56,602 nucleotides of DNA from a virus, in IMG/VR virus record IMGVR_UViG_3300045988_059190; one strand, written 5' to 3'. Position 1 is the first letter of the stretch; each line of letters begins with the position of its first letter. The position numbers and the translations under genes were made by a program. The notes under the pieces are model-generated. The model saw only the letters and a list, made by a program, of their open reading frames with translations. It had not been told where the DNA came from and did not search any database. This document shows positions 5,563-56,602 of the stretch, in pieces.

Positions 5563-6344
5563 ATCCGCCAGACAGAGTATATATGAGCAAGGTATTTACA
5601 TTCACGGAAGATTATCCTCATCCAGTGTGCGCTGGAGAAATAATCAAAGGCGGTACGGGTTATGAATATCCGTCTGGTGGCAAGCCATTACCGGAAGAAA
5701 TCGAGCATATCTATCCTGATTACAGCCCATATCCTGAACTTTGCAATGACACAGCTTATGGATTTCTGACAAGGGGATGCCCGAGAGGTTGTGATTTCTG
5801 CATCGTGAAAGACAAAGAGGGGCAGAAAAGCCACAAGGTATCTGATTTGTCTGAATTTTGGAATGGACAGAAAAATATCGTTTTGCTGGATCCAAATATG
5901 TTCGCTTGCAAGGACTGGGAAAATCTGAGCCAACAACTTATTGATAGCAAGGCTTGGATAGATTTTTCGCAAGGTTGCGACATTCGGATTATGACCAAAG
6001 AAAAAGCGGAATATATCAAGCAGATGAAGATTAAGCAGATACATTTTGCGTGGGATAGATACCAGGATAAAGACAATATAGTGCCAAAATTTAAGATGTT
6101 TCAAAAGTTAACTGGATGGAACAGAGGGAAGATGACGGTGTATGTCTTGTGCGGATTCGATACAACATTAGAACAAGACCTTGACCGGATATACACACTC
6201 AGAGATTTGGGATATGCCCCGTACGTGATGATCTATGACAAATACAAATTAAAGAAGCGTGATCAGCTGAAAAGAATGCAGAGATGGGTAAATTCCAGAT
6301 ACGCATTTATGGCATGTGAGCGGTTCGAGGATTATACAGGGTAG
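5526..6344 (+). CDS. radical SAM domain protein
   Basis: CX3CX2C motif in FLTRGCPRGCDFCIV, followed by a TIM-barrel-like pattern (VLLDPNMF, DFSQGCDIR, HFAWD, YVLCGFDTTLEQD). The start is uncertain: GTG 5526 and ATG 5583 both lack an RBS. Confidence 0.8.
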   Translation: MRITNDPLTAWLNPPDRVYMSKVFTFTEDYPHPVCAGEIIKGGTGYEYPSGGKPLPEEIEHIYPDYSPYPELCNDTAYGFLTRGCPRGCDFCIVKDKEGQKSHKVSDLSEFWNGQKNIVLLDPNMFACKDWENLSQQLIDSKAWIDFSQGCDIRIMTKEKAEYIKQMKIKQIHFAWDRYQDKDNIVPKFKMFQKLTGWNRGKMTVYVLCGFDTTLEQDLDRIYTLRDLGYAPYVMIYDKYKLKKRDQLKRMQRWVNSRYAFMACERFEDYTG

Positions 6345-6353
6345 GTGAAAAGA

Positions 6354-6749
6354 ATGAATATTGAATTAAAAGAGATAGACAAAGACACATTAAAAGTCGG
6401 GGATTGGGTTGGAGTTGCGAGAGTGGTGAGCTGTGGATGGGGTTCTACATTCCGGCATCAGTTAATTACTCCGGCAAAAGTTACAAGAATTACTCCAAAA
6501 CGGACAAAATTCTTTACGGATAAATTCGGAGAACATGACAAAAAGGAAATTTTTTATGAGCTTGATGGTGATGCCGGAAACGAAAATTATTTAGCTAAAT
6601 CATTCAAGTGTTTATCTGACGGAATATATAAGATGGAGGAATTGAAAAGAACTGATCGTTTAAGGGAAATCAGTGATGAAGATTTGCCGGAAGTAGCGGA
6701 ACACATGAAAGCAATTACAGAGATTTTGGAGAAATACAAAGAGAAATAG
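6354..6749 (+). CDS. hypothetical protein
   Basis: ATG follows AGGTGA. No motif recognised. Confidence 0.6.
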   Translation: MNIELKEIDKDTLKVGDWVGVARVVSCGWGSTFRHQLITPAKVTRITPKRTKFFTDKFGEHDKKEIFYELDGDAGNENYLAKSFKCLSDGIYKMEELKRTDRLREISDEDLPEVAEHMKAITEILEKYKEK

Positions 6750-15543: not shown

Positions 15544-16941
15544 ATGAGACTGATAAAAAATATTAAGGCGGTATGGAATAAAATGGTTAAAGTAAATGAC
15601 GCTAAAAACATATTCGGAATTGAAACAGGGCGGTCTTCTGATATGGATACCGCCCTGTCACTGTATAAAAGCATGAGATCTGGTGTACCAAAGTGGTGTA
15701 CCAGTGGGAAGATAAAGCCAACAAGGTTTTCGAATGTGATTTGTCGTGAGATAGCAAACCTCACACTGTTTAATGCGGATATCAATATTACAGGGAATAA
15801 TGAACTACAAAAGAGATTTGACAGAGTAATGAACACGTTACAGGAGAAGCAAGAGGAAAGCTGTGCGACCTGTGGAATGATGGTCAAGAGCAACGGTGAT
15901 GATGTAGAATTTTTGGATCCGGATTACTTTCTGATTACAGACACCAACACGGACGGGGATGCGTTAGCAGCTATCTTTTTCTCCTACCTTAAGAAAAACG
16001 ACAAATACTACACAAAAGCTGAGTATCACAGATTTGAGGATGTCGGACTGGAACGTGTATACCATATATCCAGTAAGGCCTATAAATCAGACAACGAAGA
16101 TATGATCGGGACAGAGATCACGCTTGACAGGGTGGATGAGTGGAAAGACATTGAGCCGGAAGTGTACGTACATGGGTTAGAATATCCACTGTTTGTCTAC
16201 TGGCGAAATCCTTACGCAAATGCGATTGACAAGGAATCTCCACTGACTGTTCCGGCGTTTTCGGAATGCATCGAAGAATTGAGATGGTTGGATATTGCCC
16301 TTAGCAAGATGGGAGACGAACAGGAAGACAGTCAGCACATGACATTTGTATCACAGTCTGCTATACAATTCGCAAACGCACAGGGGATTGAGCTACCAAG
16401 ATTTGTGAGCGGATTGGAGCAAGGGATAAATGAAGACAATACCATTCATGAACATGTGCCTACTCTACTTGTAACAGATAGAGTGAGTGCTATTAACTTC
16501 TACCTATCCATCATCGGATACAAATGCGGATTCTCAAACGGATATTTCTCTTTCGACCAGAATCAAGGCATACAGACAGCAACACAGGTAGAATCTGACG
16601 ATAGACGTACACTACATACTATCCAGGCATTCCGAAACATTTTGGACGGAAAGAATCATGATGGAGTACTGCACAGAATCATCTATATCCTGTATGCGGT
16701 CGGCACAGCAAACGGAACCATCCCGTTGACGAACTACCAAACAGCATGCGATTTTGAAGACCTTGTATATAACTTAGAGGATGATCGTGCACGGTGGTGG
16801 AACTATGTTTTACAGGGCAAGGCTCCGGCATGGATGTATTTTGTGAAATTTGAGAGCATGACCGAAAGTGAAGCAAAAGCAATGATTAAAGAAGCACAGG
16901 AGCAAAACAAACCAGACAGTGGATTATTCGGGGAGGAATAA
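15544..16941 (+). CDS. portal protein (SPP1 Gp6-like)
   Basis: 465 aa directly after terL. C-terminal pattern is TATQVESDDRRT..DFEDLVYNLEDD..MTESEAKAMIKEAQ. Confidence 0.8.
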   Translation: MRLIKNIKAVWNKMVKVNDAKNIFGIETGRSSDMDTALSLYKSMRSGVPKWCTSGKIKPTRFSNVICREIANLTLFNADINITGNNELQKRFDRVMNTLQEKQEESCATCGMMVKSNGDDVEFLDPDYFLITDTNTDGDALAAIFFSYLKKNDKYYTKAEYHRFEDVGLERVYHISSKAYKSDNEDMIGTEITLDRVDEWKDIEPEVYVHGLEYPLFVYWRNPYANAIDKESPLTVPAFSECIEELRWLDIALSKMGDEQEDSQHMTFVSQSAIQFANAQGIELPRFVSGLEQGINEDNTIHEHVPTLLVTDRVSAINFYLSIIGYKCGFSNGYFSFDQNQGIQTATQVESDDRRTLHTIQAFRNILDGKNHDGVLHRIIYILYAVGTANGTIPLTNYQTACDFEDLVYNLEDDRARWWNYVLQGKAPAWMYFVKFESMTESEAKAMIKEAQEQNKPDSGLFGEE

Positions 16942-16944
16942 CGT

Positions 16945-18648
16945 ATGAATACTGTACGTGCAAATATAACGAGTAGCAGATATGCGGAAACAAATAGCAT
17001 TTTCCAATATGATACGGGTAGAAAACTGGAAATATATGGATGCAATCTACCGAAGTCTGTAGAGGTACAATTTTCTACAGACAAAGAAAAAGGAAATACG
17101 ATAACTCGTGTCGGGAACACAAACAATGGTGTCACTACAACAATAATTCCTAATCAGCTTTTAAACGATAGTGAAAAAACAAGCAATTTCTGCATTTTTG
17201 CATTTCTGTATAATGTTGATAACGATGGAGGAAGAACGGAATACGTGATTAAAATACCAGTAGTTGCCCGTCCAAAACCAGAGAATCCATCCGAAGAACC
17301 ATTGCCAGAGCCGAATATATTTCACGAAACTGTAGTAGCAGTAAATGCCAGTGCAGATCGGGCAGAGAAAGCGGCGTCTGATGCAGAAGATATCCGAGAT
17401 AACCTGAATCTTGATTTGTCTGAAAAGATTACTCGTCCTCAGACAGCGGAGGTGGGACAGGTTCTGGCTGTCAAAGAAATTGATGAAAGTGGAAAACCTA
17501 CCGTATTCGAAGCAGAAGATGTCAAAGTACCAACGAAAACTTCTGAATTAGAGAATGACAGCGGATTCCTTACGGAGCATCAGGATATAAGCGGAAAACT
17601 GGACAAGGAGAAACTTCCGGAGGCGATAGATGATGCATTGGCACAGGCGAAAGAAAGTGGGGAGTTTAACGGAAAGGACGGAGCACCTGGAGAAAAAGGT
17701 GAGAAGGGAGATCCTGGAGAAACTACATATGTGGAAAATCCATACGATGATACGGAGATTAAGAAAGAAATCGCTGCTAAGGTAGGGTATTCAGAAGTGG
17801 TAGGCAACCAGTTGTTGATGTATGCAGACGATACGAAGGAAAAGTTGCTGGCAACATTGAAATTGCCGAGTGGCGGAAGTAACTTAGACATCCAGATTAA
17901 CGGACAGAGCATAGTTAGAGATGGGGTTGCGGAGATACCACTAATCAAAGAAAGTAGTCCGGGGTTGGTATCGGTTGATTATTATGCAACAACGGGAGGC
18001 CTTACGAAAGCTAACGAAAAAACTGGTCTTATACGTGTATTTTCAGCGAGAAAAACTGAAATCAATAATCGTTCTAATGATTGTCTTCCGATTACATCAC
18101 CACTTCTCGACTACGCCGTAAAAGCTGCCATGTGTGATGGAAAAGGTGGTGCGTGGACAGCCGAGGAACAAGCGAATGCTAGAGACAGGATTGGAATTGA
18201 TGAGTATGAAGATGTTTTAGACGTGACACTTGAAGAAGATAGCTCATTTTCCGCAGATTTTGAACATGAATACAAACAACTGTATATCTACATTGACCAA
18301 TCAGGAGTTACGGAAAAAATATATGGTGTGATATTTCTGTATCCGTATTCATACGTCGACGGTGAAGGTAAAAAGATAAACACTTTTTGTAGTTATTACC
18401 AGCCTACTTCCAAAGCATATTCTAATGTAGCATCCGTTTGGAAAAGTTATGGAAAAGTTGCTACAAGAATCGCAAGTGTTACTAACGATCAAAAAAATAC
18501 AACAGGCAATCAAACAACTTGTTTAAAAGTTTGGGATACAAGTATGTCTAATATAAATGGAATTGGAGATTCGTTCAAAGGTATCTATCCAAGTACTACT
18601 ATTTTCAAAGCTGGAACCAGACTTGTTGTGAAAGGGGTGAGAGCATGA
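16945..18648 (+). CDS. collagen-like fibre protein with BppU-N-like N-terminus
   Basis: Six G-X-Y triplets, GKDGAPGEKGEKGDPGET. The N-terminal ~60 aa is paralogous to the remnant at 42690..42900. Its position next to the portal gene is atypical. Confidence 0.65.
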   Translation: MNTVRANITSSRYAETNSIFQYDTGRKLEIYGCNLPKSVEVQFSTDKEKGNTITRVGNTNNGVTTTIIPNQLLNDSEKTSNFCIFAFLYNVDNDGGRTEYVIKIPVVARPKPENPSEEPLPEPNIFHETVVAVNASADRAEKAASDAEDIRDNLNLDLSEKITRPQTAEVGQVLAVKEIDESGKPTVFEAEDVKVPTKTSELENDSGFLTEHQDISGKLDKEKLPEAIDDALAQAKESGEFNGKDGAPGEKGEKGDPGETTYVENPYDDTEIKKEIAAKVGYSEVVGNQLLMYADDTKEKLLATLKLPSGGSNLDIQINGQSIVRDGVAEIPLIKESSPGLVSVDYYATTGGLTKANEKTGLIRVFSARKTEINNRSNDCLPITSPLLDYAVKAAMCDGKGGAWTAEEQANARDRIGIDEYEDVLDVTLEEDSSFSADFEHEYKQLYIYIDQSGVTEKIYGVIFLYPYSYVDGEGKKINTFCSYYQPTSKAYSNVASVWKSYGKVATRIASVTNDQKNTTGNQTTCLKVWDTSMSNINGIGDSFKGIYPSTTIFKAGTRLVVKGVRA

Positions 18649-18947
18649 GAATAACAGAATACAAACAAGTCGACACAAAAACAGAAGAATACACAGTGAC
18701 CATTCCGGCCGAGTACGATAACGAAGGTAACATCATCTCTGAAGAACATGAAGAAACCCGCACCCGTGAAGTACCGGTCATGGGAACGGTCTACAGAGAT
18801 ATGACAGCAGAAGAAATCGCTGAGGCAGAAAAACTTCAGGCGGATATGCCAGAACCAGAACCAACACCAGAAGAACGACTGAACACATTGGAAACCACAA
18901 CAGACGACATCGTACTGATGTTAGCAGATATTATAGGAGGAGAATAA
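18645..18947 (+). CDS. hypothetical acidic protein (fibre-associated)
   Basis: ATGA coupling. Ends ..ERLNTLETTTDDIVLMLADIIGGE. Confidence 0.55.
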   Translation: MRITEYKQVDTKTEEYTVTIPAEYDNEGNIISEEHEETRTREVPVMGTVYRDMTAEEIAEAEKLQADMPEPEPTPEERLNTLETTTDDIVLMLADIIGGE

Positions 18948-18951
18948 TAAT

Positions 18952-19107
18952 ATGAAGACATTAAGTGGAATCAAGTTAAAAATCATGGTAAGAGCATTCA
19001 GAATCCGTATTAAGAACGGAGAGAAATTCGAAGACATCGCAGCGGATTATCCGGCATTAACGACCGACGATCTGGAAGCAATCAAGGAAGTGCTGAATAC
19101 TAATTAG
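18952..19107 (+). CDS. small protein in XkdX-like position
   Basis: 51 aa after a GGAGGAG RBS. It lies between the fibre genes and the holin, as XkdX does in PBSX-like elements. Sequence similarity was not established. Confidence 0.45.
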   Translation: MKTLSGIKLKIMVRAFRIRIKNGEKFEDIAADYPALTTDDLEAIKEVLNTN

Positions 19108-19232
19108 CAGGAACAACCATCGTGGAGAACGATGCAGACTGCTACATGGAATGTACTTATAAGGCTAGTGGAAATGAGTAGGGGACGCTTGCACAAACAG
19201 AAAAATATAGAATGAAGAAAAGGAGTGATATT

Positions 19233-19526
19233 ATGACACAGATTATTAATTACGTAAAGCCAGAACTGGTGGTAGTATCTATCGCACTTTATTTTCTGGG
19301 AATGTGGATGAAAAATTCCAAGAGAATCAAAGACAATGATATTCCTATTTTTCTCGGTATAGTTGGAATTATTATTTGCGGTCTGTATGTGATTGCGACA
19401 TGTGACTTGTCTGGAATGCAGAGTATTTCGATGGCATTGTTTACGGCTGTTGTACAGGGGATTCTTGTAGCCGGACTTAGTACATACGTCAATCAGATTA
19501 TTAAGCAGATTGGAAAGGACGAATAA
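19233..19526 (+). CDS. holin (phi LC3-like family)
   Basis: Three hydrophobic segments. Family-like motifs are VKPELVVVSIALYFLGMWMK, DIPIFLGIVGIII and GILVAGLSTYVNQIIKQ. RBS is AAAGGAG. Confidence 0.75.
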   Translation: MTQIINYVKPELVVVSIALYFLGMWMKNSKRIKDNDIPIFLGIVGIIICGLYVIATCDLSGMQSISMALFTAVVQGILVAGLSTYVNQIIKQIGKDE

Positions 19527-38753: not shown

Positions 38754-39278
38754 ATGACAAAAACAGAAAGTGCGGTTCAATGGGCAATAAATATCGCCAA
38801 CGACAACAGGCATGGTTACAGCCAAGCGAATCGGTGGGGAAATCCAGATTATGATTGCTCGTCTCTTTTAATATCAGCATGGCAACAGGCCGGAGTTCCG
38901 GTCAAATCAAACGGTGCCACATATACCGGGAATATGTACAACGTTTTTCGGGCGTGTGGCTTTTCCGATGTTACATCAAGCGTCAATCGTTCAACAGGTG
39001 CCGGTATGCAACGAGGGGATGTCCTTTTGAATGTAAAGTATCATACAGCTATGTATATTGGTGGAGGGCAGATGGTACAAGCTTCATCCAGTAGAGGACA
39101 CACGGAATCAGGAGATCAAACGGGCACAGAGATATGGGTGTGTAAGTATTACAATTACTCAAAAGGTTGGGATTATGTACTACGATATACTGCTGGGGGA
39201 GATTCGGGCGGCAGTGGAGGACAGGGACCAATACAACCGCCATCCGGAGTTTCGTTTGTACAGTGGATTCCTGGATAG
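38754..39278 (+). CDS. NlpC/P60-type cell wall peptidase (virion-associated lysin)
   Basis: Catalytic Cys context PDYDCSSLLISAW, His context KYHTAMYIGGGQMVQAS, and a G/S-rich tail. Confidence 0.8.
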   Translation: MTKTESAVQWAINIANDNRHGYSQANRWGNPDYDCSSLLISAWQQAGVPVKSNGATYTGNMYNVFRACGFSDVTSSVNRSTGAGMQRGDVLLNVKYHTAMYIGGGQMVQASSSRGHTESGDQTGTEIWVCKYYNYSKGWDYVLRYTAGGDSGGSGGQGPIQPPSGVSFVQWIPG

Positions 39279-39292
39279 AAAGGAGAAGATAT

Positions 39293-39712
39293 ATGGCAAT
39301 TCAAATGCGTAGGGGACAATTAAAAGATTTCGATGCAAATAAGATGCTTCCTGGAGAATTTGCAGTTACTATAGACGAAGCTGTAGAAAACCAAAAAGTT
39401 TTTATGTGCTTTTCCGCAGGAACAGTAAAAGAATTGGCCACAAAAGAAGATTTTGAAGCTGATTTGAAAAGCATACAACAAGCCATAGAAGATGCGAATA
39501 ATGCATCAAAAAAGGCACAAGATGCTATAGACAAAGCTAATCAAATTGTGGCCGGGAAAGTTGGTATCGATGACACGCAGACCAGTGCATCAACTGTATA
39601 TTCTTCACAGAAAAGTGATGAAATATATGTAAAGAAAACAGATTACGATAATCTTGTAAAAAAAGTAGAGACGTTGGTAGATGATTTGTCTGACGCAATA
39701 GTAAGTAGGTGA
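39293..39712 (+). CDS. tail fibre-associated protein (QxRRG N-terminal motif)
   Basis: MAIQMRRGQLKDFDANKMLPGEFAVTIDE resembles the N-termini of HylP/Mtd-N-type fibre proteins. RBS is GAAAGGAG. The track ORF starts at 39167. Confidence 0.55.
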   Translation: MAIQMRRGQLKDFDANKMLPGEFAVTIDEAVENQKVFMCFSAGTVKELATKEDFEADLKSIQQAIEDANNASKKAQDAIDKANQIVAGKVGIDDTQTSASTVYSSQKSDEIYVKKTDYDNLVKKVETLVDDLSDAIVSR

Positions 39713-39716
39713 TAAA

Positions 39717-42401
39717 ATGGCAGATGTATATATAGAAGAATTAAATAAAGCAGATAGTCTTTCGGATGACGATGTTGTCTTGCTCCACACCAAAACGGAA
39801 GATTTGCAACTAACTATCGGAATGCTGAAAGCATTAATGATAGTAGAAAAAGCCATAAAGCTTGCTACTCCGTTTTCGGTATCTATAACAGGAGATGCGA
39901 TCGGGAATGGAAATACAGATGGCAGAGAGATTCTCTCGATTGAATTATCGAACATAAAAGCTTCAAGGTTGAAGAATAGCATTAAAATTAATGGAACGAA
40001 TTTCGACGGAACAGAGGGAATTACTACAGAACGATGGGGAGCAGAAAGAACTGTAACGATCGGTGGATGTAAAAGGAAAGTAAACGGAGAAACAGATGTT
40101 AACTTTCCGGCAAATGAAGTTTTCTCCGGATCCGGACAACCTTATGTCCCGACAGCCGGAGGGGTTATGACGGGCAACCTAAAAAGGGAAATAAACGAAA
40201 CAAGTTATAATTTGTTTGAAGCAACTACAGAAAACGAAGAATCCGGCGTTTCTGTAAAATTAAAATTTGGTGATATTAATGCAAACGCTATTATCCAAAG
40301 TCTTTCACAACCTTATTGGCATAATGGAGTAAATTTAAAAAAATTACTTACAGGAGATGATATCTATGAGCTTGAACGACGAACTTCAGAACTCGAAAGT
40401 ATGGCTACACAAACATTTAAAAATCCGTATAAAAACAAGACAATTGTAGCATTTGGCGATAGTATCATTGCTGGCTGGGGATGGAAAGAGGGAACAGGAA
40501 TCATCCAGCCATTAAAAGAAAAGTATCCGGATGCTACGTGGATCAACAAGGCGGAATCCGGGGCGAATATGGCAGTGACATCCAATCCGTCACATACACC
40601 AATTGTTAACCAGATTACATCATATACCGGTGCTGCGGATGCGATAATTTTCGACGGTGGAGTTAATGATATCAATAACAGCATCCCGGTCGGCTCTATC
40701 GAATCCGGATATGATGCATCATATAACACAAGTACATTCTGCGGTGCATTGGAAAGATCATTGCAATACATCATGGACAGGTATCCTCTGGCGGTTAAAT
40801 TATATATTATTCCACACAGCTTCGCAAAAGACAACTCTTACGTGGACAGCATCTATTCAAAAGCAATTGAAATCTGTGATAAATGGAATACGCCATACCT
40901 TGATATGAGAAAATACTCACAGATCGCCATGACTTCTGCCAATAAGGAAGCATACACCTATAATCCGAGAAGCAAGAAAGGTGACGGTGTGCACCCGAAC
41001 GAAACCTGGTATCGTACATTCTACTGTCCGGTAATCGACCAGGCATTACAGTATCAGGGCATTGGCTCTATTACAGCGTCCGAAGCACCAGAGGTCGTAG
41101 CGGTTACAGGAGTTAAACTCGACCAGACAACACTGACGCTGAATGCCGGAGAATCTGCACAGATTACAGCTACGGTATCACCAAGCAATGCGACCAATAA
41201 GTCGGTTACATGGAGTGCCAACAACAGCAATGTATCTGTATCTGGTGGAAAGGTCACAGCCAAGACAGTCGGATTAGCAGTCGTAACGGTAACTACCGCA
41301 GATGGTGGATACACAGCACAGTGTAATGTTAATGTTAAGCAGACGGAAACAGAGGTTGTGTCAGATGAAATTATTATGCCAGATATGTATAACACAGGCG
41401 TTGAAAATAGTATTCAATTGAAAGAAATAAACACTTCTTCTCTTTCAGGTGCCACACGATTACAGATGACACAGCAAATGGCTGATAATTTCTGTAGTTC
41501 AGATGGAATTATTAGCAATTATCATTTTAACGGAATATATGTTGATTTTAACAAATCAATTACGCAAACTGTTACTTTTAAAAATTGCAAATTCACCGGT
41601 GATGATAATATAGCTTACGCTGTTGTAGTTAGCACGTATGGAGTTGATAAAGGAATAAGCTTTGAAAATTGTGAATTTTCTCATTATAAATCTGCTGTCT
41701 CGTCAGGTACATGGAAAGCTACATTTAACAAGTGCTATGTGCATAATATGATGCAAGACGCATTTAAGATTAATCATTCTGACATTTATCTTAAAAATAG
41801 TTATATTCACTCGTTAGGAATAGATACAACCTCCCACGCCGACGGAGTGCAGATTGAAAATAATACTACAGAAGTAACTGTGCATATATATAATTGCAGA
41901 TTTGATCAGCCTTACACATCTGGCAATACAGAAAATGCGGCTATTTTCGCAAAGTGCAAAAATGCAAATATAATTTTAGACGTTCAAAAATGTTATGCAA
42001 CAGGTGGGAATTATACTATCTATGCTTTGGACAGTGATACTGCAAAAGCGTCTGGAAAAGTAGAGTGTGTAGTTGGTTGTAGTAGCCGATATGGAATCGC
42101 AAATATAGCAGATGGCGTTGAACAAAATGTTGTATCTGCTGATAGCTTGCTAGTGAGCACTGTTCAAAACAGTAAATTATATGTAACAAATTACACGAAT
42201 AAAGAAAGAACATTGAAAATAGTTACAGATATCGAAGAAAAGACCATAACTATTCCAAAATCACCTACTTACGATGAAAATCACACACAAGAGTTTTCAG
42301 TATATCCATATAATGTTGCCGTAGAATATTCGATGGAAGCGAAATGGGTAAAATGTTACGAGAATGAAAATCTTATAAGAACACAGAAATTAGAAAAATA
42401 G
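39717..42401 (+). CDS. tail spike: SGNH esterase + Big_2 + beta-helix domains
   Basis: SGNH blocks VAFGDSIIAGWG, GGVNDI, DGVHPNE. Big_2 is VTGVKLDQTTLTLNAGESAQITATVSP..VTWS. C-terminal repeats NCKFTG/NCEFS/NKCYVH suggest a parallel beta-helix. Confidence 0.8.
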   Translation: MADVYIEELNKADSLSDDDVVLLHTKTEDLQLTIGMLKALMIVEKAIKLATPFSVSITGDAIGNGNTDGREILSIELSNIKASRLKNSIKINGTNFDGTEGITTERWGAERTVTIGGCKRKVNGETDVNFPANEVFSGSGQPYVPTAGGVMTGNLKREINETSYNLFEATTENEESGVSVKLKFGDINANAIIQSLSQPYWHNGVNLKKLLTGDDIYELERRTSELESMATQTFKNPYKNKTIVAFGDSIIAGWGWKEGTGIIQPLKEKYPDATWINKAESGANMAVTSNPSHTPIVNQITSYTGAADAIIFDGGVNDINNSIPVGSIESGYDASYNTSTFCGALERSLQYIMDRYPLAVKLYIIPHSFAKDNSYVDSIYSKAIEICDKWNTPYLDMRKYSQIAMTSANKEAYTYNPRSKKGDGVHPNETWYRTFYCPVIDQALQYQGIGSITASEAPEVVAVTGVKLDQTTLTLNAGESAQITATVSPSNATNKSVTWSANNSNVSVSGGKVTAKTVGLAVVTVTTADGGYTAQCNVNVKQTETEVVSDEIIMPDMYNTGVENSIQLKEINTSSLSGATRLQMTQQMADNFCSSDGIISNYHFNGIYVDFNKSITQTVTFKNCKFTGDDNIAYAVVVSTYGVDKGISFENCEFSHYKSAVSSGTWKATFNKCYVHNMMQDAFKINHSDIYLKNSYIHSLGIDTTSHADGVQIENNTTEVTVHIYNCRFDQPYTSGNTENAAIFAKCKNANIILDVQKCYATGGNYTIYALDSDTAKASGKVECVVGCSSRYGIANIADGVEQNVVSADSLLVSTVQNSKLYVTNYTNKERTLKIVTDIEEKTITIPKSPTYDENHTQEFSVYPYNVAVEYSMEAKWVKCYENENLIRTQKLEK

Positions 42402-42444
42402 ATATGGAAAAAGAGACTAATATAGTACAACTGTAGCTACAAAT

Positions 42445-42678
42445 GTGATAGATTCGTTTGAAATTAGCAGTCCGTATTATCTAGGAAATATGAGCAAGAA
42501 CGGAGCACCAGCTGGAACAGGCGTGACAGGCAAGATCTACTATGCACAGATCTATTCCGGGGATACATTGGTAGCGGATATGATCCCGGTTAAAAAGTCT
42601 GACGGAACATTATGCTTGTATGATAAGGTGCGCAAGAAGTACATCTACAACGCCGGAACAGGCACGTTAACAGAATAG
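42445..42678 (+). CDS. C-terminal fragment of a fibre-like protein (probable gene remnant)
   Basis: GTG start without an RBS. The frame is open from a stop at 42418-20 with no ATG. Ends ..GKIYYAQIYSGDTLVADMIPVKKSDGTLCLYDKVRKKYIYNAGTGTL. Confidence 0.35.
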   Translation: MIDSFEISSPYYLGNMSKNGAPAGTGVTGKIYYAQIYSGDTLVADMIPVKKSDGTLCLYDKVRKKYIYNAGTGTLTE

Positions 42679-42689
42679 GTGGTGACAAG

Positions 42690-42900
42690 ATGAACAATAT
42701 TATTGAATGCAAATTAGAATCGACTCACAAATAAATATTCACCGGTCTCTGGCAGTATGATTGCGGTCAAAAAACTGCGAATTACTGGTGGGGACTTTCC
42801 AGAAGCCGTAGAGATACAGTTTTCCTTAAACGAAAAGAGTGGTAGCGTAATAACAAGGATAGGAACAACAAAGGACAATGGATTGTTCGGGGAGGAATAA
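42690..42900 (+). pseudogene. decayed N-terminal fragment of a paralogue of the 16945 fibre gene, ending in a copy of the portal 3' end
   Basis: MNNIIECKLESTHK-stop, then QYDCGQK, then a frameshift at an A6 run, then KLRITGGDFPEAVEIQFSLNEKSGSVITRIGTTKDNGLFGEE-stop. Compare MNTVRAN..QYDTGRKLEIYGCNLPKSVEVQFSTDKEKGNTITRVGNTNNG in the intact gene. Confidence 0.7.
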
Positions 42901-42978
42901 AAATGAAAGATGTAATACAGAAAACACTAACAGCCGGTACGAAGACAGAATTTTAGAGAGAAAAGGGGGATGATGTAA

Positions 42979-43548
42979 ATGGCTAATGAAAATTTAAAAG
43001 CGCAGAAAATATACGGAAAATACATAAAAGAACTTCCACAAGTCACAGAAGTGAACGATACGGATGATATTATCATAGAAGATTCCACTCCAATAACAAG
43101 CAGGGCGAAATTAGGAGTGCTGTTTGATTCCATTAAAAAAAGAATTGCATCTACTTGGAGGTTTTCAGAACTAAACAACCGAACTATCGTGGAATATGCT
43201 AGTGAGTTAAATATGAATATAATTAAAAATACAGACGAACAGCAAATATACACTCTATATGGCGGTCGTTTTAAGGTAGTATCTGGCACGATGGTAGTTA
43301 ACATTGCCATGAACATTGGGTATGCGAAACTGTTTTCTGTCGAGCAATTAAAAAACTGGTTTGGAGATGACTATGCTACATCACGGCTTAGCATAAAAAC
43401 GTACAATGGAGACGATGTGGCACAAGAAGTGCATTTATACGCCCCGGAAATATGGAATGGTGAAATATTCCAGTATTTCTATCCAACCAATAAAGAAGGA
43501 AGTATGCGTGTTAATTACAGGTTGGAATATGTATATCCATTCACTTAA
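42979..43548 (+). CDS. putative receptor-binding / fibre protein
   Basis: ELPQVTEVNDTDDIIIEDSTPITSRAKLGVLFDSI resembles N-terminal anchor motifs of phage fibres. Confidence 0.45.
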   Translation: MANENLKAQKIYGKYIKELPQVTEVNDTDDIIIEDSTPITSRAKLGVLFDSIKKRIASTWRFSELNNRTIVEYASELNMNIIKNTDEQQIYTLYGGRFKVVSGTMVVNIAMNIGYAKLFSVEQLKNWFGDDYATSRLSIKTYNGDDVAQEVHLYAPEIWNGEIFQYFYPTNKEGSMRVNYRLEYVYPFT

Positions 43549-43785
43549 TAAGTAAGCGTATACTTCTACGGTTGACGAAAAAGAAACTGCAAACTGGATT
43601 TGTCCAGTATGCTCTATCTTATACTTTGCATTTTTTGAAAAGATATAAGAGTTTCTTGCCTTTTAACAGAGGGTGAGCAGGCTATATTTTTATTTAATTC
43701 AGAAAAACACGGGAACGATATTTTTCTGAATTTTTCCCATAATTATAGTATCTTATAGAAAGGAAATTAAGTAATTACGGAAAAA

Positions 43786-43962
43786 ATGAGCGAAGAAACC
43801 ATTTGCGAAGTAGTCAAAAGCTGTGCCTACGACTACACGGTAGACGAATTGGCAGAACACTACGGCATGGAAAAAGCAGATGCAGAAAAGTTTGTGAAAG
43901 ATCATGCATCAGAGATTACAGAAACGAAAGAGCACTTAAAACAGGAGGGGTATATTGAATAG
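43786..43962 (+). CDS. small acidic protein (58 aa), no TM segment
   Basis: Overlaps the endolysin start by 8 nt. It is not holin-like. Confidence 0.4.
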   Translation: MSEETICEVVKSCAYDYTVDELAEHYGMEKADAEKFVKDHASEITETKEHLKQEGYIE

Positions 43963-44944
43963 GGTAGTCGATGTTTCTGAGCATAACGGAAACATCGACT
44001 GGGCGAAAGTAAAAGCATCCGGCATTGTAGGAGCTATCATCAGATGCGGATATGGACAAGATCAGACCGGACAGGATGATAAAAAATGGCTGAGAAATGT
44101 ATCTGAATGTGAACGTCTTGGCATCCCTTACGGTGTGTATCTGTATTCTTACGCAAAGACTACAGGTGCGGTACGGGGAGAAATCAACCACGCATTAAGA
44201 CTTCTAAAAGGACATTCTCCGGCATGGCCTGTATATTTTGACAGCGAACAGCCGGGAACACAGGGCGTTGCAAAAGCCAATGCAAAAGCATTTTGTGACG
44301 CAATGGTGGCACATGGCTATAAAGCCGGAATCTATGCATCTACATCTTGGTACAAGAACTATATCGGTCAGACATGGGGATATTCTCTGTGGATTGCATC
44401 TTACGGCTCTAAATCTGCCGGAGTAGACGGAATCGACATGTGGCAGTACACATCAAAATGCTCTATTCCTGGAATCCCTGGAAATGTAGATGTGAACTAT
44501 GTTTATAAGGACTTTGGCGGTACGGTAACTCCAGTACAGAAACCGACTGCATCACCGGCACCTAAACCGGTAGATGAATCTTGGAAAGGTGACAAGCGGT
44601 ATTATCTTAACAATTCCCGTGTTGGAGAATGGCAGAAAGCCATGAACAAAGGGTTTGATACCAACGCACTGTCTGTTGATGACAAATTCGGTGTCGGCTC
44701 ACAGAATTTTGCTAAAACGCATATCTTGTGGTCCGGCCAGACACACAACTGTATCACGGCTATCAGATGGCTGAGACGCACCCTCAGAGACGTATATGGC
44801 TTTACGAAGCTGTCTTACGATGGTGGATGGACAGACTACCTTGGGAAGTGTGTAGAAGTATTCCAGAGGAACAGAGGACTTACACCGGATAGAAAAGTAG
44901 GACTTGACACAACCTACTGGCTATTATTGGGTGTTGTAAAATAG
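43955..44944 (+). CDS. endolysin: GH25 muramidase + peptidoglycan-binding domain
   Basis: VVDVSEHNGNIDWAKVKASGIVGAIIRCGYG..GVYLYSYA, a P/K-rich linker, and C-terminal ..FQRNRGLTPDRKVGLDT. TTG start follows AGGAGGGG. Confidence 0.9.
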   Translation: MNRVVDVSEHNGNIDWAKVKASGIVGAIIRCGYGQDQTGQDDKKWLRNVSECERLGIPYGVYLYSYAKTTGAVRGEINHALRLLKGHSPAWPVYFDSEQPGTQGVAKANAKAFCDAMVAHGYKAGIYASTSWYKNYIGQTWGYSLWIASYGSKSAGVDGIDMWQYTSKCSIPGIPGNVDVNYVYKDFGGTVTPVQKPTASPAPKPVDESWKGDKRYYLNNSRVGEWQKAMNKGFDTNALSVDDKFGVGSQNFAKTHILWSGQTHNCITAIRWLRRTLRDVYGFTKLSYDGGWTDYLGKCVEVFQRNRGLTPDRKVGLDTTYWLLLGVVK

Positions 44945-44975
44945 AATAAGATCATTACACTTTTCATACAATACT

Positions 44976-45019
44976 AAAAATCCCCACTGCTGATTACTCG
45001 CCAGTAGTGGGGATTTTTT
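44976..45019. terminator. bidirectional terminator between convergent genes
   Basis: AAAAATCCCCACTG ... CAGTAGTGGGGATTTTT with A/T runs on both sides. The right arm overlaps the 3' end of the minus-strand gene. Confidence 0.65.
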
Positions 45020-55969: not shown

Positions 55970-56602
55970 GTGGGAGAAGTAATAAAAGCTTATAAAGGAT
56001 TCAACAAAGACATGACTTGCAGAGGTTTCCGGTATGAAGAGGGGAAAGAATACGAAGAAGAAAGAGCCGGAGCGTGCAACTGTGGATTCCATGCATGCGA
56101 GCATCCGTTAGATTGCCTTGGATATTATGCTCCGGCACACAGTGTATATCACGAAGTCGAACAGAGTGGAGAGATATCGAAAAAATCTGATGATACGAAA
56201 GTAGCATCTACGAAGATTGGAGCAAGAGTGAGCATTGCCGGATTGGTACAGGCTGCTATCGAATATACGAAAGAAAGAGTTAAGCCAGAAGCAGAAGCTA
56301 ATGAGGACTGCGGAGCATCATCAGCGACAGGAGACTACGGAGCATCATCAGCGACAGGATACAAAGGAGCATCATCAGCGACAGGAGACTACGGAGCATC
56401 ATCAGCGACAGGAAACTGCGGAGCATCATCAGCGACAGGATACAAAGGAGCATCATCAGCGACAGGAGACTACGGAGCATCATCAGCGACAGGAAACTGC
56501 GGAGCATCATCAGCGACAGGATACAAAGGAGCATCATCAGCGACAGGAGACTACGGAGCATCATCAGCGACAGGAAACTGCGGAGCATCATCAGCGACAG
56601 GA
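55970..56602 (+). CDS. N-terminal part of tandem-repeat protein (DUF7666-like head); 3' end leaves window
   Basis: GTG follows AGGAGGAA. KAYKGFNKDMTCRGFRYEEGKEYEE..CNCGFHACEHPLDCLGYY, then GASSATG(DY/YK/NC) repeats with no stop before 56602. Confidence 0.8.
   Translation, partial: MGEVIKAYKGFNKDMTCRGFRYEEGKEYEEERAGACNCGFHACEHPLDCLGYYAPAHSVYHEVEQSGEISKKSDDTKVASTKIGARVSIAGLVQAAIEYTKERVKPEAEANEDCGASSATGDYGASSATGYKGASSATGDYGASSATGNCGASSATGYKGASSATGDYGASSATGNCGASSATGYKGASSATGDYGASSATGNCGASSATG
56312..56602 (+). repeat. Tandem 27-nt coding repeat (about 11 units), continuation of 2..217
   Basis: Same 21-nt core. The order of the 6-nt spacers gives an 81-nt super-period. Positions 56500-56602 are identical to 1-103. 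Confidence 0.95.

Follow-up and report, generated by a model that had tools for sequence, protein, structure and literature searches.

A probable composite recombination scar with remnants of five genes behind the tail spike gene of a gut siphophage

The side tail fibres of P2, Mu, P1 and lambda are reportedly subject to gene exchange and domain swapping, and lambda PaPa is said to carry a frameshift in stf. The comparison of HK97 with HK022 reportedly revealed mosaic joints and gene remnants, and the capture of defective-prophage DNA is said to proceed by relaxed homologous recombination. In siphophages, genes for receptor-binding proteins (RBPs) are normally not located between the portal gene and the minor head gene. 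Phage mosaicism is described as a mixture of homologous and illegitimate joins, in keeping with a model of illegitimate and homeologous recombination (Martinsohn, Radman & Petit 2008, PMC2327257; Moura de Sousa et al. 2021, PMC8136500).

The locus described here lies in a viral DNA of 56,602 nucleotides (IMG/VR record IMGVR_UViG_3300045988_059190; the whole stretch is called the window, and coordinates refer to it) from a temperate gut siphophage of the Lachnospiraceae type, for which the only organism that can be named is a Dorea MAG with a prophage carrying a related RBP–fibre cassette. The window has the look of a complete genome. Positions 1-327 and 56203-56602 consist of one tandem repeat with a 27-nt unit, which encodes 9 aa in an open frame, as though a circularly closed assembly had been cut within a repeat-containing gene. 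A BLAST search of positions 39000-45000 against the INPHARED phages returned no match. Behind the 894-aa tail spike gene, 577 nt without a credible gene are followed by gene B (189 aa), a 58-aa gene and a GH25 endolysin gene. These 577 nt (42402-42978) very probably represent a non-coding composite scar, made of the leftovers of five genes, at a receptor-binding hot spot.

All the features of a mosaic-junction scar were found at this locus, namely sources in matching order and spacing, disabling mutations, sharp presence/absence borders and a joint with identity in GAC only. As in known phage mosaic joints, module borders are sharp, gene pieces are decaying and the whole block is present or absent among relatives; one side of the exchange lies in common sequence (the modules B_N and S of Table 1), and at the other side the joined partners have 3 nt in common. 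Unlike the usual mosaic joint, five successive fragments are lined up here within 580 nt, and the source of each is recognisable, so that the direction of transfer (portal to tail) can be read and decay can be ordered across six independent copies. Like the tail fibres of P2, Mu, P1 and lambda, these genes keep their N-terminal anchors, exchange distal domains at linkers and tolerate broken fibre genes, whereas the cassettes here occupy two genome sites, one of them between the portal and minor head genes. The prophage-like contig L183, which carries a tract of portal end, K and RBP, would be a plausible kind of donor in the sense of defective-prophage capture, although the parallel is one of analogy only.

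Fragments behind the tail spike and the empty site of relatives

The fragments, all of which lie on the + strand, are listed in Table 1 with the resident portal end, the phage's own fibre gene and the lesions; alignments demonstrate both what they consist of and from which genes they derive.

Table 1. Features of the scar region and the post-portal locus (window coordinates), and lesions in the copies of the scar
Feature	Position	Strand	Remark
A, N-terminal anchor (233 codons) of the 894-aa tail spike	39717..40417	+	homology to relatives runs to 40417, resumes 42959
S, SGNH/GDSL esterase + Big_2 spike module	40418..41338	+	Pfam PF13472, PF02368
H, putative beta-helix C-terminal spike module	41339..42401	+	own stop TAG 42399-42401
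25-nt filler between spike stop and L'	42402..42426		matches neither flanking source
L', headless last 84 codons of lectin-like C-terminal domain of displaced RBP	42427..42678	+	stop TAG 42676-42678
Native 11-nt RBP–fibre spacer GTGGTGACAAG	42679..42689	+	includes RBS of F
F', codons 1-62 of F-type fibre gene	42690..42876	+	phrog_16164 N-domain
GAC, sole bases common to fibre and portal sequence at the F'–P' joint	42874..42876		
P', last 8 portal codons (..NGLFGEE-stop), 24 nt	42877..42900	+	in-frame fusion to F'; GGGGAGGA RBS inside
K, stub ORF	42903..42986	+	codons 1-18 from a 91-aa gene, then 9 codons native to the 5' flank of B
B 5' flank + B_N	42959..43139	+	RBS + first 54 codons of gene B (189 aa, 42979..43548)
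Resident portal 3' end (..DSGLFGEE-stop)	16915..16941	+	25/27 identical to 42874-42900
F2, the phage's own intact post-portal fibre, 567 aa	16945..18648	+	
Lesion: extra A in A-run	42769-42774		window, L182, L185
Lesion: TAA in F'	42732-42734		window, L182
Lesion: TAG in K	42954-42956		window alone
Lesion: 75-nt deletion in F'			L028, L031, L186

The initial annotation had proposed that a fibre–holin cassette was moved away from here or replaced, and a move away finds no support in the closest relatives with the same anchor: in 22 of 22 IMG/VR relatives carrying A (G001 and G002 included), the site is empty, position 40417 being joined to 42959 with 6 nt between, and the entire 2,541-nt block, scar included, is present in this lineage only. 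In these relatives A is a stand-alone 244-aa gene (A-short) that is joined directly to B, with its stop overlapping the start of B. A-short, which lies at about 6001-6735 in those of the loci L156-L177 that include the whole left flank, amounts to an anchor protein without a distal domain.

Module S also occurs in the lectin-type RBPs of more than 40 other phages (80-89% nucleotide identity). The esterase module begins at the same residue (KNPYKNK; SPYKDK in L024) behind the anchors A, B_N and BppU_N (window 40417/40418; L046 1339; L024 4767), and this border is a recurrent natural point of domain swapping. On the other side of the scar, hypervariable sequence makes up the C-terminal half of B and the spacer behind it (43214-43686): homology to relatives covers 42959-43213/43228 and starts again at 43683, and several unrelated C-termini occur between. 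B thus has the appearance of another small receptor-binding protein, one whose distal part can be exchanged.

Sources of the fragments

The open frame 42445..42678, described initially as a headless C-terminal fragment of another fibre-like gene, does encode such an end, namely the C-terminal 77 codons of the domain that closes intact RBPs; it has no ribosome-binding site (RBS), and the DNA homology covers 84 codons, starting at 42427. A scan with the 77-aa ORF found 44 IMG/VR contigs, and a scan of species genomes added two loci, one of which is the prophage of the Dorea MAG (L179); where the gene was read out (L024, L031, L046 and L179), the segment forms the C-terminus of a full RBP. The 697-aa RBP of L024 is composed of BppU_N, a GDSL esterase, Big_2 and a lectin-like end, BppU_N (PF10651) being confined to the RBP and absent from the L024 fibre. 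L' is 82-88% identical in nucleotides to the intact genes of L024, L031 and L183.

From the end of Big_2 to the point that matches 42427, relatives have 295 nt versus 1,088 nt in the window; the latter comprise the H module, its stop and the 25-nt filler, and supplant 295 nt of the lectin domain. The alignments thus demonstrate that the distal domain of the spike was replaced, leaving the last 84 codons of the old domain stranded behind a new stop. The only relative of the H module is the C-terminus of an RBP in L178 (70% nucleotide identity), where homology stops at the stop codon; behind this RBP, too, lies a fibre of the F type.

The L024 RBP is followed by the 11-nt spacer GTGGTGACAAG and an intact 468-aa fibre, beginning MNNIIECKLESTYKEIFTGLWQYDYGQKLRITGG, and positions 42427-42876 of the window form a single unbroken 450-nt match to this RBP-end/fibre-start junction (87.6%). 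The same spacer stands ahead of the intact fibre in L029, L030 and the Dorea prophage L179 and, with one substitution, in L046. The initial identification of a fibre-like fragment interrupted by an in-frame stop and a frameshift is confirmed: tblastn of the 567-aa fibre matches 42769-42885 (46% over 39 aa, with E = 1.9e-8 coming from a small search), and relative to the intact orthologues a GAA codon has become TAA and one A has been added in the A6 run. F' was, however, taken for a relative of this genome's own fibre at 16945, to which it is only 62% identical in nucleotides; it is the orthologue of a fibre of other phages, agreeing with the intact L024 fibre in 175 of 187 nt (93.6%) and with the fibre start of L183 at 81%. 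As F' is L024-like but L' is closer to L183 (88%) than to L024 (82.5%), the cassette itself is mosaic, with no one donor accounting for all its parts.

An intact fibre stands directly behind the lectin-type RBP in the ancestral cassette (L024, L029, L030, L046 and L179), in agreement with the earlier statement that a fibre gene originally lay here, although it was not the resident one. Independent and differing fibre stubs lie behind the same RBP end in L044, L035 and L011/L013; intact fibres in some phages and independent stubs in others indicate that the fibre has been lost repeatedly downstream of this RBP type. Residues 4-149 of F2 match phrog_16164 (4.4e-32); neither F2 nor the L024 fibre has a Pfam match, and no PDB sequence matches F2. 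The body of F2 (17273-18194) is 90% identical to the fibre behind the post-portal RBP in L183.

The fragment F' is closed by the 21-mer GGATTGTTCGGGGAGGAATAA at 42880-42900, which, as first reported, agrees with the portal gene end at 16921-16941 in 20 of 21 positions; the match extends to 25 of 27 (42874-42900 against 16915-16941). The 21-mer is not a common string, as self-comparison with up to three mismatches finds just these two sites in the window, and such a pair is not expected by chance (0 expected; 100 shuffles, up to three mismatches). Looser similarity upstream of it, also reported initially, is present but weak (about 13 of 27, ungapped) and is found already in intact fibre genes, so that it reflects A-rich sequence, not copied DNA. 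The identical 21-mer also closes the portal gene of the more distant L063, and most family members encode the same portal-end residues with other codons.

The copied tract runs on rightwards, which the initial annotation overlooked: K and the start of gene B belong to the same imported block. In L183 and L187, the portal end is followed by an intact 27-aa K and by an RBP made of B_N, esterase and Big_2, after which L183 continues with the lectin domain and an intact fibre; the L187 locus ends within the esterase/Big_2 module. Positions 42852-43139 of the window align at 87% to the part of L183 and L187 that spans P, K and B_N, and the post-portal RBPs of L183, L187 and L046 begin with a repeat of the B_N anchor. 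The complete 53.5-kb genome of the relative G002 (92-95% identity) has a real portal gene that ends in GLFGEE-stop and is followed by the same K start; this portal locus agrees with window 42874-42938 (P' to K codon 12) at 62/64.

Because P', K and B_N are thus contiguous behind real portal genes (L183, L187 and G002), the 21-mer is the end of an imported flank, and the view that it served as microhomology at the breakpoint is contradicted. The joint itself reads ..ACGGAC/GGTG on the fibre side and ..CCAGAC/AGTGG on the portal side, with GAC alone in common, and intact fibre genes have no 21-mer at codon 62. The 21-mer is probably a hitch-hiking donor flank, which would serve as a provenance tag for the portal locus and would have no present function.

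The last nine codons of K, which are native to B, also form the 3' end of A-short in the empty-site relatives, and the 91-aa gene opened by codons 1-18 is intact in L181. K has been interrupted in the window by a premature TAG and is intact (27 aa) in L031, L182, L185, L183 and L034. Exact and degenerate IMG/VR searches for a full-length gene beginning like K returned the four known contigs only, and no leftover of K codons 13-27 was found near the holin/minor-head junction. The first nine residues of K fit the pattern M-x-[ND]-[IV]-I-[EKQ]-x-x-[ILF] of F-type N-termini, but K as the start of a third fibre allele was rejected, since in L181 its 18 codons open an unrelated 91-aa gene.

Several side observations concern the same tract in other contigs. 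K lies between direct repeats AAGGAGGATG in L034 (5780-5915), and is absent from L046 (1160-1190), where one copy of the repeat is present; this gain or loss of K appears to be an insertion or deletion mediated by the RBS-like sequence. L034 also carries an additional scar (5890-6020), in which the first ~12 codons of B_N run, out of frame, into a mid-portion of the lectin domain. L183 (OHAU01000174.1, 1-7200) looks like a degraded or truncated prophage: its portal has no N-terminus, its terminase is mostly gone, and bacterial genes, for an RNase J-like MBL-fold protein and a sigma factor, adjoin.

Copies of the joint, proposed history and alternatives

The F'–P' joint is also found in five more contigs, namely L028 and L031 (both IMG 3300045988), L182 (UPSY01), L185 (OGCN01) and L186 (OLRU01). 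The lesions of the six scar copies are nested (Table 1), by which alignment demonstrates a single origin of the joint and the order of its decay, and their distribution would reflect one ancestral event followed by neutral erosion. Coding capacity is not conserved among the six, which variously carry the frameshift, TAA, TAG or the 75-nt deletion. In L031, an intact 722-aa RBP of the type A2-S-L (anchor, esterase, Big_2 and lectin) is followed by the F' stub, P', K and B, which corresponds to the precursor state.

The comparisons show that the ancestral cassette consisted of an RBP (N-terminal anchor, SGNH, Big_2 and lectin domain L) followed by an F-type fibre gene, an arrangement still intact in other phages and in the Dorea prophage. 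In one ancestor, the fibre was cut after codon 62 and fused in frame to the last 24 nt of a portal gene, the K stub and B_N, a tract that is unbroken behind the real portal of relatives with a whole RBP–fibre cassette at that site (portal, K, B_N-S-L, F). The tract may have entered by recombination anchored in B_N, which is present at both loci; the exchange would have proceeded leftwards through K and the portal end and finished within the fibre gene, where an illegitimate join at GAC would have removed the rest of the fibre. Later, in the lineage of the window, a putative beta-helix module with its own stop displaced the first part of the lectin domain, of which only the last 84 codons were left behind, and the relics then gained a frameshift and two nonsense mutations in nested order. 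The alignments themselves demonstrate that transfer ran from portal to tail, and the explanation as a whole, a composite scar of cassette shuffling that includes the B_N route, is held with considerable confidence. Two intermediates predicted by these schemes, a tail locus with A-S-L, full fibre and B, or one with A-short, B_N-S-L, F'–P', K and B, were not found in any genome, and the order and number of events are therefore inferred.

A different route to the same joint, which is possible though on balance doubtful, starts from a tandem duplication or a looped-out circle of [portal end, K, B_N-S-L, F(1-62)], in which the connection of F(62) to the portal is the novel junction; a single Campbell-type crossover or unequal exchange in B_N would have inserted it, and an in-frame deletion would later have fused A to S. 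The order at the tail, S-L-F(1-62)/P-K-B_N, is indeed an exact cyclic permutation of P-K-B_N-S-L-F in L183, and S, L' and P'-K-B_N are each ~85-88% identical to L183, as expected of a common donor. However, F' does not follow this pattern, being nearer to L024 than to L183, the deletion between A and S is an extra requirement, and the predicted intermediate is absent among the 22 A-bearing relatives.

The initial annotation's own version, in which the fibre–holin cassette was excised here and moved to the portal site in this lineage with the 21-mer as microhomology, is improbable. It draws on the canonical prophages L024 and L179, in which RBP, fibre, small gene, holin and endolysin form one run that is collinear first with the scar region and then with the window's post-portal cassette, and on G002, whose post-portal fibre is preceded by the last six codons of a lectin RBP, which makes a tail-type context the origin of fibre DNA in the family as a whole. 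For the window itself, the same version is opposed by the divergence of F' from the resident fibre, which hence was not copied from it, by the GAC-only identity at codon 62 of intact fibres, by the arrival of the 21-mer with K and B_N as one portal-locus tract, and by the empty site of the closest relatives. What stands is a recombination scar that links the tail locus with the post-portal fibre/holin locus, with the direction reversed.

Retention of the fragments for a function, whether they encode small peptides (from K or the 47-aa ORF 42757..42900) or provide B with a platform for translational coupling or an RBS, is very improbable. P' does place a strong RBS (GGGGAGGA) ahead of K, the stop of K overlaps the start of B as that of A-short does in relatives, K is open in five of the six scar copies, and the 75-nt deletion (L028, L031 and L186) has reopened F' as a 42-codon frame, so that residual translation of small peptides is conceivable. 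Yet both F' and K are interrupted by stops in the window, where B nevertheless retains an RBS of its own, the disabling lesions accumulate in a lineage-specific way, the 22 empty-site relatives manage without the block, and the 77-aa ORF has no match in Pfam or PHROG. Scans of the scar region for terminators, promoters and Rfam families gave nothing above chance (promoter matches at shuffle level, no terminator and no Rfam match). An assembly chimera, in which the assembler bridged the junction through a k-mer common with the portal end, gains some appeal from a 21-27-nt repeat at two loci but is practically negligible, because such a bridge needs a 21-mer native to both sides, which intact fibre genes do not have, and because the same joint recurs in five further contigs that are 3-16% divergent by segment and differ in their nested secondary mutations.

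Other types of element were also considered and rejected. No second copy of 42427-42678, as a diversity-generating retroelement would have, occurs among the 20 largest direct-repeat families listed. An invertible tail-fibre switch of the Gin/Cin/Min shufflon type does not fit fragments that are all on the + strand, inverted repeats that are only short and at chance level, and a sole large-ORF recombinase candidate ~30 kb off. A recoded gene with programmed frameshift or readthrough is contradicted by intact orthologues, which have CAGAAA or CAGATA versus CAAAAAA in the window, and by the lineage-specific stops.

Cassette travel between the portal and tail sites

The stretch from the portal to the minor head gene (PF06152; window 16926-19237) is a swappable cassette site, with at least four unrelated fibre-like cassettes among 80 relatives. 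In these relatives (L076-L155), homology is lost in the final ~20 nt of the portal gene, beyond which several unrelated cassettes lie; the MEYLIID type accounts for ~44 and the MFKNCVLK type for 16, the portal gene ends differently in 19, and the K type is rare. A conserved Hol44-type holin gene (19212..19526) lies at the right end of the post-portal cassette, 24 kb from the endolysin. The collinearity of L024 and L179 with both loci implies that the fibre/holin block was relocated from the tail end to the portal at family level. A deletion running from GCCGGTACGG in K to GCCGGAACGG at the end of the RBP would turn the L183 arrangement into that of G002.

This kind of object is well known, an ordinary phage recombination scar; the instance is new and unusually legible. 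It is a worked example and not a new mechanism, in which relic tags (the portal end, the RBP end, the start of the 91-aa gene in K and the end of A-short) record the travel of cassettes between two sites. For annotation, it means that 42445..42678, 42757..42900 and K are not to be called genes. The locus further provides precise natural borders of RBP module exchange, one where the esterase begins (KNPYKNK) and one where Big_2 ends, and it draws attention to the unusual place, between portal and minor head gene, of the RBP, fibre and holin genes of these gut phages. It is also conceivable, though not likely, that the phages possess a two-site cassette system, in which B_N is kept both next to the portal gene and where the tail module ends, and in which ectopic recombination, also with B_N-bearing prophages, would repeatedly shuttle RBP–fibre cassettes and leave scars as by-products. 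Such shuttling, if true, would bear on host-range variation, and the scar would not be a one-off accident.
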